In this document: piece after piece, positions 3,072 through 55,921 of the stretch
Layout: the number at the start of each line of letters is the position of its first letter
Numbering within the stretch: the stretch's first letter is position 1
The notes under the pieces: generated by a model
Seen by the model: the letters and a program-made list of their open reading frames with translations, nothing else
Told to the model about the DNA's origin: nothing
Database searches by the model: none
Assembly: GCA_964016885.1 (NCBI GenBank)
Contig: OZ024749.1
Coordinates: forward strand, 43,276,001 to 43,340,000
Reading direction: 5' to 3'
Source of the DNA: Eledone cirrhosa
Taxonomy: Eukaryota
Length of the DNA: 64,000 nucleotides
Program-made: the position numbers and the translations under genes

Positions 3072-3235
3072 TAACGAAGGAAATGTGGTAAGGAACCAGG
3101 TGGACCATAACGCACCAAAGTACTCAATACTTGAGGTAGTAGAGTGGGTAATAGGAACCAGTAAGACCCCGACAGCTAATTCTATTAGCCGTCGAAACGG
3201 CTTGAGCTCAGCTGTCGGGGTCTTACTGGTTCCTA
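3072..3235 (-). mobile_element. TA-embedded fold-back element family A, copy 1
   Basis: Tail TAACGAAGGAAATGTGG...GGAACCAGTAAGACCCCGAC plus an inverted arm ending ACTGGTTCCTA. (TA)n on both sides. Confidence 0.85.
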
Positions 3236-3249
3236 TATATATATATATA

Positions 3250-3391
3250 TAGGAACGAGTAGGACCCCGACGGCTGAGCTCAAGCCGTTTCGACGGCTAA
3301 TTCTGGACTAATTAGTCACTCTATTACCCTAAGTATTGAGTACTTTGGTGCGTTATGCTCCATCTGGTTCCTTACCACATTTCCTTCGTTA
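3250..3391 (+). mobile_element. Fold-back family A, copy 2 (internally deleted)
   Basis: Inverted arm TAGGAACGAGTAGGACCCCGAC... followed by tail ...CATTTCCTTCGTTA, within (TA)n. Confidence 0.85.
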
Positions 3392-3502
3392 TATATATAT
3401 ATATATATGTATATAGTGTATAAATATATATGTATACACACACATATATATATATAGAGAGAGAGATAGATAGATAGATATATATATATACATATACATA
3501 TA

Positions 3503-3728
3503 TAGTAATAATAATAAATTTGAAGACTAAAATCCAAAGAGGGGTCGATAAGGATAAATATATATCAAATATATAAGAACCGTAGAGAAAATATTTATTA
3601 AAATAAGAGATAAAAGTTTAAGCAAAGAATCGCTGCTTTCACCCTTAACGGGATCTGCAGAAGGTCCCGTTAAGAATGAAAGCAGCGATTCTTTGCTTAA
3701 ACTTTAATCTCTTATTTTAATAAATATA
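3503..3728 (-). mobile_element. TA-embedded fold-back element family C
   Basis: Inverted repeat 3591-3728 (about 65-bp arms) plus a tail at 3503-3590. The tail recurs at 13324-13393 and 44527-44618. Confidence 0.8.
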
Positions 3729-3931
3729 TATATATATATATATATTTAATACATTAACAGAGAAAGCTTTAAGCAATACTCCGACCGGCTTCCGTCTCAC
3801 TCAACAAACATTAGGATTTACCTTAGTATAATCCCAATTTTACGTTTGGGGTGCTAACTATACGTATTTTGCGGATACCCAGTTGTATTATTTTATATGA
3901 GACATAATTAAAATACATCTCTTTTTCCACA

Positions 3932-4121
3932 GGACGGTGGATTGGCAGTATCGGTAAAGTGTCGGGCGCCATGCTTTGAAGCATGGAGCTACCTCCCTTT
4001 ATGATCTGAGTTCAAATCCCGCCGAGGTTAACTTTGCCTTTCATCCTTACGGGGTCGATAAAATAAAGTACCAGTCACGCACTGGATAATTGCTGGCCTT
4101 GTGCCAAAAGTAGAAAGAATT
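3932..4121 (+). mobile_element. Octopus-type tRNA-derived SINE (family 1)
   Basis: A-box TGGCAGTATCGG, B-box GTTCAAATCCC, central GCCTTTCATCCTTACGGGGTCGATAAA (Nin/Deu-like). About 16 copies in the window. Confidence 0.9.
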
Positions 4122-4677
4122 ATATATATATATATATATATATATATATATATATATATTTGTATGTTTATGCGTGTAACTATGTGTCTGTCTGTGTGCC
4201 TGTCCGTGTGCTGGGACACTTATATAGATATATTACAAGAAGGTGTATTTCTCTGTGTAATGTTAACATTACATACAATCGATTCTATGTGATGTTAAAC
4301 AAATTAACACAGTATTTACACCTATAGCCACACTTTCTACTTAATTACATTAGAAATATAACCGTTAGATTCTACATGTAACCTCTTAATAGAAGCCGAT
4401 TAAACAGATACGTCATGCAAGCTGATGTACCGAGGTCGGTGTTATTTCAACATTTCAACCTCTCTTTAATATTAAACAGATACATTTACACTAATGACTA
4501 TATTAGTTCAATAAACATAATAGTTTTAAGAGATCGTTTTATAATTACTAATGTGCACACATATAATAATAAATCAAAAGTGATGTGTTTAGTAATCCAC
4601 GATTACATACAGGCATACATTTTCACATACACACACACACTCACACACACACACACACACATATACATATATATATA

Positions 4678-53313: not shown

Positions 53314-53503
53314 AATTATTTCTACTTTTGGCACAAGGCCACCAATTATCCCAATACATTACTGGTACTTTATTTTATCGACCCCGTAAGGATGAAAGGC
53401 AAAGTTAACCTCGGCGGGATTTGAACTCAGACCATAAAGGGCCGTAACTCTTTGCTGCAAAGCATGGCGTCCGACCCTCTACCGATACAGCCAATCCACC
53501 GCC
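53314..53503 (-). mobile_element. SINE family 1, full length
   Basis: TSD GAAGTATA(T/A)CTTAATAAT. Confidence 0.92.
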
Positions 53504-53637
53504 CGAAGTATAACTTAATAATAATGATAACATACACACACATATATATATATAGAAATATATATGTGTGTGTGAATATATCTGAATATATATATTTGTA
53601 TATATATATATATATATATATATTATATATATATACA

Positions 53638-53857
53638 ATACGATATTAACAAATGGAAACTATATTTATAAAACCATATTTATTTTATTATACATATTTC
53701 AAGGATACCAAGTTAAATTATGGTATGCTTTCATCAGACAAAATACAATATATACCAGTTTTATAAATAAATATTGACATACCCTTTCAAAATGCTACCG
53801 TTACTTTTGGAAGACATCAGATTTTATAAATATAGTTTCCATTTGTTAATATCGTAT
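53638..53857 (-). mobile_element. Ribozyme-containing element with a perfect 36-bp inverted copy of its tail
   Basis: ATACGATATTAACAAATGGAAACTATATTTATAAAA (53638-53673) is the inverse of 53822-53857. Confidence 0.85.
53681..53745 (-). ncRNA. Minimal type I hammerhead ribozyme, family H copy 3
   Basis: Minus strand: TATTTTGT-CTGATGA-AAGcATACCA taatttaact TGGTATcCTT-GAAA-TATGTA-TA-ATAAAATA. Stem I has 8 pairs and stem II pairs at 9 of 10. Confidence 0.88.
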
Positions 53858-54309
53858 ATTTACTCCAAAGACTTGTCGAGTGCTTTATATCAGTTATAAA
53901 AATATTTGCTTGTTGTATCCCAACAATTTAAATAGAACTTTTGCATATATATATATACATATATGTTTATATGTGTGTGTATATCTATGTATACGTATAT
54001 GTTAGTGTAAGCCAGACAGACATAGTATTTATAAAACCATATTTGTGTAATTAAGGAAACAGTAACAGACCTACAAATGTTCTTTGCTTCATTACAGAGA
54101 ATCACTGTCTGTTTTCTTTCGGTTGAACATTTTTTATGCTCTGCCTTCCCACATTCCACTTTTCAACTTTTCATGTATATTATCATGTTCGACAATATGT
54201 ACATATTGTTGTGTCATTATATATCTCTCTCTCTATATATATATATATGTGTGTGTGTGTGATGTATACATATGTGTTGTGTCATTATATATATATATAT
54301 ATAATATAT

Positions 54310-55072
54310 ATATTAAGACAGGGGGAAGAAAAAATGGCTTCACTTGTGCTTTCAACAAATTTATTTTCTTCACAAAATCCAAAAAGAATTTTTTTCCGGA
54401 TTAGAAAAAGTTTTTTCTTAAAAAAAATTATTTTATAAATTAAGTTGTTGGTTGTTGGTTGTTGGTTAGGTCTTAGGAGTTCTTGGTTAACGTAGGAGGT
54501 ATTGTTTCGTTTTTAGAACGACCTTTCACGCTGAGGTGCGCTTGTCAAACTGATGTGTATGTGGTGTGTTGTTCTATATATAGTGATTTAACATGTTTGT
54601 GGTGTGGTGGGGGTTTCTTTTCTCTCTCTTTAATAAGTGTATGGGTGTAGGTGTGTTGAAAAAGTGTTAATAGCAGTAATGAGTTGAGACGGTGAGTAGG
54701 GTTGGGTGGGGAGAAATGTAGCAAGTGCGGCCTGCCCCGGTCATTCTCGAAAAATTCCTTTATTCAGGGGAAAAAGCTTTTAGTATTCCTTTTGTGTTGA
54801 GAATGGTCACAGGCAAATCGCACCAAGTTTTAAATAAAATTTTTCTTTTTTTTTCTGAAGAATTTTTCTACGTCCATCCCAAAATTAGTCCTTTGTTCAA
54901 CACACACATATGTGCGTATACACGTACATACACACACGTACATACACACACAAAAAAATTCTTTTGGGATTTTGTGAAGAAAATAAATTTGTTGAAAGCA
55001 CAAGTGAGCCATTTTTTCTTCCCCCCTGTCTTAATATACCTAACTGTACCAAGGATTACACACATTTTCCAA
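54310..55072 (+). mobile_element. Large TA-embedded fold-back element (about 85-bp inverted arms, about 550-bp interior, tail)
   Basis: 54310-54394 is the inverse of about 54952-55036. A 36-bp tail follows, then (TA)n. Confidence 0.75.
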
Positions 55073-55686
55073 TATATATATATATATATATATATATAGA
55101 GAGAGAGAGAGAGAGAGAGAGAGAGAGAGAGAGAAATACATATATACATGCGTACATAAATATATATACAAATACACATGTATATAGATATATATACATA
55201 CATATATTTACATACATACATACACAAATACATACATACATATATATGTTTATATACATATATATATATACCTTCACTCGTGTAGGACACCTCGGTTATT
55301 TTTCATTTTGTAAAAAAAACCTCACTTTCTAATATATATACATATATTTACATACATATATATGTTTATATACACACACACACACATATATATATATATA
55401 TATATATACTTGTATTTTGTACTGTAAGTGATACTAGACAGACGTTAGAGGATTCCATAATTAGATATATGAGACAGCGTAGTTACATACATTAAGTTTG
55501 CCGAGAGCAACAGTGATTGTAAACACTAGCTGGCAGGTAATCATGGCAGAGTTTTGTAATCTTCGATATTATATAGAAAAGTGAGCGAAGACACAAAATA
55601 CACGTGTGAAATATATCAGTACATATATACTGTATATATATATATATATATATATATATATATATATATATATATATATATGTATA

Positions 55687-55921
55687 TAACGAAGGAAATG
55701 TGGTAAGGAACCAGGTGGACCATAACGCACCAAAGTACTCAATACTTAGGGTAGTAGAGTGGGTAATAGGAACAAGTAAGACCCCGACGGCTGAGCTCAA
55801 GCCGTTTCGACGGCTAATTCTGTACAGCTCAAGCCGTTTCGACGGCTAATTCCATAATTCCAGTACAGAATTAGCCGTCGAAACGGCTTGAGCTCAGCCG
55901 TCGGGGTCCTACTTGTTCCTA
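55687..55921 (-). mobile_element. Fold-back family A, copy 7
   Basis: Full tail, duplicated central segment, and an inverted arm ending TTCCTA. Confidence 0.9.

Follow-up and report, generated by a model that had tools for sequence, protein, structure and literature searches.

The window analysed here, a 64,000-nt stretch (positions 43276001-43340000) of the 3.0-Gb Eledone cirrhosa genome, contains a series of short inverted repeats set in (TA)n microsatellites. In each of them one end is closed by a tail fused to (TA)n, while an inverted arm of the same family, lacking the tail, lies at or beside (TA)n at the opposite end. Judged by their sequence, the elements in the window are 5'-truncated insertions of Penelope-like elements (PLEs) that carry an endonuclease (EN), and they belong to at least two clades. 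We consider it probable that they arose by twin priming in (TA)n and that the short ones ("stubs") are strong-stop products, the two copies having ended where the RNA template ended. All seven copies of family A and the six other elements listed in the original prediction were recovered by masked self-comparison and direct reading of the sequence, and all 13 show the layout just described. The elements are as follows:

3074..3233, minus strand: family A stub (Hydra-type PLE); of its two arms the tail-less one extends further 5' (to +8; tailed arm to +34)
3252..3389, plus strand: family A stub; tail-less arm to the predicted RNA start, tailed piece from about the short start site
3505..3723, minus strand: family C stub with a degenerate hammerhead core and an 86-nt tail; Hydra-type parent in L289, L290 and L294
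4680..4841, plus strand: family A stub of a divergent subfamily; variant block common to both arms
4900..5096, plus strand: family A stub; both arms terminate at the predicted RNA start
about 4977-5003: 3' part of a hammerhead-like motif, within the 4900..5096 stub
5017-5096: 80-nt tail, within the 4900..5096 stub
24689..24823, minus strand: family A stub; both arms trimmed
27097..27376, plus strand: stub derived from a canonical PLE of CCHH type (parent in L213); the tailed arm is short and the interior lacks a hammerhead
27097-27309, minus strand: long tail-less arm of the 27097 stub
28697..28939, minus strand: stub absent from the original prediction; tail related to that of 27097, tail-less arm longer
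29007..29458, plus strand: PLE-type insertion without overlapping arms, tail-end piece at the right (read by eye)
tail-less arm of the 29007..29458 insertion, minus strand: contains a CTGATGA...GAAA motif (read by eye)
34504..34674, plus strand: stub of the 34504 family; only the 3' half of the hammerhead retained in this copy
44110..44435, minus strand: stub with an internal 38-bp duplication; tail at the left (minus strand), tail-less arm at the right
44341..44379, plus strand: predicted complete minimal type I hammerhead, within the tail-less arm of the 44110 stub
51250..51468, plus strand: family A stub; joint holds a locally templated insertion
53638..53944, plus strand: stub of a Hydra-type family; a relative is continuous with the end of an open reading frame (ORF) in L099
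53638-53821, minus strand: tail-less arm (the longer one) of the 53638 stub
53689..53737, minus strand: predicted complete minimal type I hammerhead, within the tail-less arm of the 53638 stub
54310..55071, plus strand: PLE-type stub with a long tail-less arm and lacking a canonical hammerhead
55689..55919, minus strand: family A stub; templated insertion of about 40 nt at the joint

Two of these elements had been listed without their tail: 44215-44435 becomes 44110-44435, and 53638-53857 becomes 53638-53944. The earlier description of a sense segment preceded by an inverted copy of part of itself does not fit 27097, 53638, 54310 and 44110: there it is the tail-less arm that includes the interior, and this arm is therefore more than an inverted stretch of the tailed one.

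For the genome at large we used a sample of 139 evenly placed 10-kb stretches (1.39 Mb in total). Inverted repeats were scored as asymmetric if one end lay on (TA)n and the other consisted of a 30-130-nt tail followed by (TA)n; those with an internal TA array (n = 41) are excluded from the sample set of 171 repeats. The asymmetric layout was found in 53 of the 171, whereas 200 trials of random placement averaged 2.8 and never exceeded 8. With the window copies counted in, the repeats that have it form 10 clusters of several members and 15 singles. The same pipeline yields 8 such repeats in the 64 kb of the window and 53 in the 1,390 kb of the sample; the estimate of about one per 5 kb holds for the window only, which is 2-3 times denser than average. 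A library search recovered 97 head-to-head pairs in the 1,390-kb sample, and family A is present there at 44 loci. The proposed TA target is likewise borne out, with at least 3 pure TA units on both sides of 51 of 54 family A stubs (the search required TATA on the left). Any target-site duplication would be hidden inside the (TA)n. Empty sites were sought for 53 stubs and candidate pairs were obtained for 7, all from neighbouring TA-targeting repeats and none a clean case; one pair (L275 against L068) is suggestive, though it too falls short of that.

The 3' ends follow a rule. Two fixed 3' ends are used in each family, in most cases at a point right before TA(T) of the parent sequence, and an arm is tailed or tail-less depending on which of the two it uses. 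Among the same-family head-to-head pairs, which represent 17 families, 92 of 93 combine one tailed with one tail-less arm. For family A alone (43 pairs), 39 are mixed, 1 is tail-less on both sides, none is tailed on both sides and 3 are unclear. The long A copies comprise 17 tailed and 13 tail-less ones out of 30. If the ends were chosen independently, about half of the pairs would be expected to be mixed. In vitro, the protein PAc (a Poseidon PLE of Anolis) cleaves both target strands and extends them, using two internal start sites flanking the tail (PMC11167929). The counts given here add to that picture: the two start sites are used in a coordinated way, one of each per insertion. A hairpin folds after the long start site in both copies tested and in the tail of 53638, with weak z-scores, whereas after the short start site of A or 34504 a hairpin is not the best predicted structure.

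Superficially the stubs resemble miniature inverted-repeat transposable elements (MITEs) or non-autonomous DNA elements of Helentron type, whose inverted repeats are asymmetric and which target TA, being short, present in high copy number, fixed at their outer ends and flanked by TA. An origin of that kind is extremely improbable: the same ends occur on elements of all lengths that encode reverse transcriptase (RT) and a GIY-YIG endonuclease, the centres vary, in 92 of 93 pairs the two ends are not symmetric, and none of the diagnostic features of MITEs was seen.

The Penelope-like origin proposed earlier is supported by the parents themselves. A few family A copies continue through a hammerhead-like motif and a 3' untranslated region of about 1.1 kb into GIY-YIG and RT. 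The A parent protein has DKT, RWR, a CxCX5C linker, CxxC and CxH motifs and no CCHH in its EN; the C parent has DKT, CxCX5C, CxxC and CxH, again without CCHH, and is 50% identical to A over 507 aa. Relatives of 53638 carry the Hydra-type linker and EN motifs, their sequence being continuous with a Hydra-type endonuclease end. As described in the available text of PMC8557442, the Hydra clade combines a C-terminal EN without CCHH with DKT, RWK, the CxCX5C linker, CxxC, CxH and insertion into (TA)n. By this motif description A, C and the 53638 relatives match the Hydra clade, DKT being seen in A and C, the linker and EN motifs also in the 53638 relatives. Differences from that account are an A unit of about 3.5 kb (by tandem spacing) against "generally <3 kb" for Hydra, RWR in A where Hydra has RWK (the C sequence did not cover this region), and hammerhead cores in A and C that are non-canonical. 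The 27097 parent is instead a canonical PLE with DKG and CCHH, not Hydra (Pfam RVT_1, E 2.8e-10; GIY-YIG, E 5.3e-6); the A parent has no Pfam RT match. Sequence of the 28697 family adjoins, in L099, an upstream endonuclease C-terminus related to that of the 27097 family, and in the 54310 family, whose two 3' ends are separated by about 37 nt, copies in tandem continue into an ORF (L303, L304) whose endonuclease end was recognised by eye. Thus three of the window families lead to predicted Hydra-type RT and GIY-YIG genes, one to a canonical PLE gene and two to partial endonuclease ends, while two were not traced.

Given these parents, the families cannot be called mostly unrelated, as had been assumed; besides the similarity of A and C, tail motifs are shared. 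GAGTRCT is common to the tails of A, 44110 and 53638, the 34504 tail has GAGTACC, and the tails of 27097 and 28697 are related to each other. From this sequence evidence the common layout reflects shared PLE ancestry (in at least two clades) rather than convergence of unrelated families. Partial tandems in which a pseudo-long terminal repeat (pLTR) and tail precede the ORF are found upstream of the A ORF (L170, L172, L178-180, L183, L186-188, L196), and a pLTR partial tandem lies upstream of the 54310-family ORF in L303.

Some side observations concern the same families. In the set of sample, two flanks and window, 19 of 142 sequences match the A parent protein, many at 25-50% identity, from which many Hydra-type families appear to coexist. 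Five family A motif matches spaced 3,542-3,543 bp apart (C1:91473190-91487394) are probably a tandem array of full-length A units. Four family C copies (L081:2533, L109:1661, L133:3241, L217:3136) have a common 5' end at about -47, three of them with a common downstream flank, which suggests a composite unit amplified whole.

Hammerhead motifs had been noted earlier in most elements, as full or 3'-half motifs, and 11 of the 13 listed contain a whole or partial one. Partial motifs are seen in the window copies of A, C and 34504 and complete ones in the 44110 and 53638 stubs, whereas by descriptor there is none in the window copies of 27097 or 54310. A stricter first descriptor missed both complete window motifs, and the counts therefore refer to a loosened version. 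With it, canonical-core motifs number 91 in the 1.39-Mb sample against 1 in a shuffle; complete canonical hammerheads occur in 9 of 53 asymmetric repeats and 4 of 69 TA-free inverted repeats, both small numbers. Rfam reports no hammerhead in the window at gathering score, and the best 150 of 488 Rfam matches are microsatellite noise only. The predicted core is canonical in the 34504, 44110 and 53638 families and non-canonical in C (CAGAAGA) and in A, where (L138-L167, L123) most long copies have C3/A8 and another subfamily has U3/A8. The latter is a reported hammerhead variant (PMC4209133); a C3/A8 core would be predicted to be inactive. The canonical pattern missed the A parent because its core is non-canonical and its stem II is longer. 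A pattern describing the whole canonical motif matched 23 times for family A, and all of these matches were rejected as joint-derived or chimeric.

The joints between the arms bear on how the second arm was made. Of the two forms of the common integration route that were originally put forward, second priming fits the data and fold-back of a whole cDNA arm does not. According to the fold-back model, which is in print, a single cDNA, or an antisense RNA (the proposal of PMC3846280), folds back, primes itself and copies itself into the inverted arm. The tailed arm should then be the longer one by at least 4 nt, which is the case in only 8 of 39 family A pairs. In 22 pairs it is the tail-less arm that extends further 5', in 6 the two arms are equal and in 11 the tail-less arm is shorter, so that either arm may be the longer. 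The tail-less arm is also longer in 28697 and in four listed window elements (27097, 44110, 53638 and 54310), and in long copies it is longer by kilobases (2.7 kb against 0.4 kb for the tailed arm in L134), yet a first strand that lacks the tail offers no template for one. Because the tail-less arm so often extends further, second priming is preferred over simple fold-back. The joints point in the same direction: 35 are distinct among the 39 A pairs (microhomology in 12, blunt in 8, insertion in 19), and many would leave a loop of less than 3 nt. Varied joints with microhomology, blunt joins and insertions are what is expected of end-joining. Two-family chimeras occur as well. In the library set 4 of 97 pairs involve two families, comprising one clear chimera (L199, with two TA-fused arms), one mis-assignment, one nested insertion and one unclear case; further chimeras come from a set selected by pattern, and some of these have short stretches of snap-back. 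Such stretches are confined to the joints, and the short palindromes at those of L040, L046 and L199 are in favour of fold-back, as are the subfamily variants that the two arms have in common. We nevertheless regard fold-back as quite improbable.

The two arms of a pair are nearly always of the same subfamily, and mismatches between them average 1.37 in family A, against 5.03 when arms are permuted (permuted minimum 3.81). The simplest reading is that two cDNAs come from one complex and that their template is, as a rule, a single RNA or at least a single source locus.

At their 5' side, the stubs end at a sharp one-sided boundary. In the 34504 family, which has a TATA box 30-31 nt above the usual 5' end, 47 of 51 arms have their 5' end at position -2 or downstream of it, counted from an A located 30-31 nt below TATAAATA, and the remaining 4 run at least 40 nt past the boundary. 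For family A the reference point is an initiator-like TT-A-GTC: the 5' ends of 54 of 61 arms lie at -5 or downstream, and one subfamily has TATTTAAA 29 nt above this site. Two further families show TATAAAA or CATAAAA about 30-32 nt above the modal 5' end, and 13 of 26 family C arms begin at or after a similar site. Genome-wide, 22,009 A arms reach +2 and 3,081 extend 10 nt more, a step that is overstated since the second pattern misses a common variant. The boundary is likely to be the capped RNA start within the pLTR, and the short copies would then be strong-stop cDNAs.

The position of the start sites is consistent with this. PAc needs RNA downstream of its start sites (PMC11167929), and sequence of that kind exists only at the pLTR-ORF junction, which would place the start sites near the RNA 5' end. 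Copying from that junction would give cDNAs of 60 and 140 nt, equal to the family A arm lengths. Family A retains half a hammerhead because the boundary falls within hammerhead stem II, while in the 34504 family it lies just before the whole ribozyme. Moreover, of the 28 A copies that carry an ORF, 3 have their 5' end no more than 1 nt from the long start site, and tailed arms begin at about the short site in L055, L065, L127, L211, L230 and window element 3252; stops at both start sites fit one shared RNA.

Alternatively, twin priming might have stopped at an RNA structure, a processing site or the end of a short non-autonomous master RNA instead of a cap. The modal 5' ends of A, C and 34504 do lie at or in the hammerhead, TATA matches are uneven, and about 11 of the 30 top matches (a set biased towards the query) have the same junction. 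In the position-ordered set, however, nearly all junctions are unique; the boundary is never at the cleavage site in the families examined, and in 34504 it is one-sided, lies 5' of the whole ribozyme and shows canonical TATA spacing. A stop other than the cap is in our opinion unlikely, though less so than fold-back.

In the twin-priming scheme, the enzyme would cut both target strands and two cDNAs would be primed in opposite directions, each from one of the two start sites flanking the tail; the pair would then be joined head to head, likely by end-joining. The start sites would be located in the 5' leader of the RNA, and most cDNAs would run only 60-140 nt before reaching the cap, at the 5' end that the pLTR promoter defines. 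It is probable that a single RNA serves both RT sites within one complex. The resulting stubs would lack a promoter and are probably dead on arrival; for a full-length copy, synthesis would have to switch to the 3' pLTR of the RNA. A more far-reaching version, which we put forward tentatively and with somewhat more doubt than belief, is that PLE RT generally starts near the RNA 5' end, that one enzyme dimer uses both start sites on one RNA and so primes the two strands of the break, that strong-stop pairs are the default product and that full length is reached by a retrovirus-like jump. If true, tail, inverted pLTR and pLTR regeneration would be explained by one scheme.

A number of points weigh against the favoured scheme. 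The one-of-each rule has as yet no biochemical basis, given that PAc in vitro shows neither a strand preference between its two start sites nor start-site homology (PMC11167929). The RNA start is placed by motif spacing only; TATA matches are weak or absent in one A subfamily, C, 53638 and several sample families, about half of the C arms extend beyond the predicted start, and the Penelope promoter of D. virilis, also within the pLTR, is described as TATA-less (PMC2377424). With respect to the parents, the 54310 endonuclease end gives no Pfam match, and a parent ORF was not reached for the 34504 and 44110 families, although their tails carry a motif shared with the Hydra-type families. Concordance of the arms is equally expected from fold-back or from a single active master copy. 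Long palindromes are unstable at their centre, and later deletion there could create variety of junctions and small asymmetries between arms. Finally, a few rows of the older A subfamily in the arm data are imprecise, as they were measured against a parent reference that fits them poorly.

Layout, hammerheads and (TA)n target are already published for PLEs. Insertion units of EN+ PLEs, as far as set out in the available portions of PMC3846280 and PMC8557442, have an inverted 5'-truncated pLTR head to head and a one-sided tail. The head-to-head copy, the tail at one end, partial tandems, a pLTR hammerhead and the microsatellite target are the same here. Relative to those portions, it is different that most insertions of some families are stubs of 130-300 bp with a sharp 5' boundary, that tails measure 33-101 nt (against 30-40), and that the pairing of a tailed with a tail-less end is backed by a count (92 of 93). 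With PAc our elements share two internal start sites flanking the tail, cleavage and extension of both strands, an AT-rich target and an uncleaved RNA template; not reported for it are ends mostly just before TA(T), with microhomology to the target, and the use of one site of each kind per insertion (PMC11167929).

In twin priming of L1, a second primer comes from the other target strand, and the resulting inversions are non-overlapping with variable internal starts; the arms seen here, in contrast, overlap, have fixed starts and are both target-primed. The minus-strand strong-stop DNA of retroviruses is similarly a short cDNA running to the RNA 5' end. Non-LTR retrozymes are, like our stubs, short, non-coding, PLE-derived and equipped with a type I hammerhead, but in the accessible part of their description (bioRxiv 10.64898/2026.07.22.740005) they form head-to-tail arrays with complete ribozymes, whereas here insertions are single, head to head and often contain half a ribozyme. 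No retrozyme-type head-to-tail array was present among 150 of the 163 tandem repeats listed for the window.

The one-of-each count, the evidence against fold-back and promoter-bounded stubs were not found in the open-access literature at bibliographic level, supplements apart; the same applies to a strong-stop or twin-priming reading for PLEs, subscription papers being outside this scope. The supplements of PMC8557442 may include octopus Hydra sequences. The accessible text of that paper states the origin of PLE inverted repeats and tails as open, PMC2377424 sees no obvious mechanism for pLTR regeneration, and the octopus repeat annotation in PMC13282606 covers, in the part available, PLEs and MITEs without the stub structure.

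By extrapolation, the genome would contain about 95,000 family A loci (44 in 1.39 Mb) and about 200,000 paired insertions (97 in 1.39 Mb). This abundance permits rules to be read from insertion footprints and makes the mechanism testable. It also follows that MITE finders can mislabel PLE stubs, and that many long (TA)n arrays in the genome are serial landing sites.

Other pieces in the window are related to the same families. Further TA-fused single arms or tail pieces are located at 2830-3033, 5147-5277, 5316-5790, 8240-8310, 34288-34447, 50785-50987 and 55267-55331, most of which match PLE-type families of the sample library; one contains a CTGACGA...GAAA motif at 2924 (minus strand). Tail-only pieces of family C lie between TA arrays at 13322-13392 and 44524-44617. 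A repeat of about 215 bp (8354-8566 and 27771-27990; 61 sample loci) has TA-array flanks and is possibly a short interspersed nuclear element (SINE) that uses the same TA target. The 360-bp near-symmetric fold-back at 15411-15770 (18 sample loci) has no terminal TA array and not the PLE layout, and is a better candidate for a MITE than the stubs. Lastly, a dispersed SINE-like repeat of about 190 bp occurs at 3931-4120 and about 12 other places, including a tandem pair (40239-40608) and inverted pairs (18075-18565 and 56071-56798).

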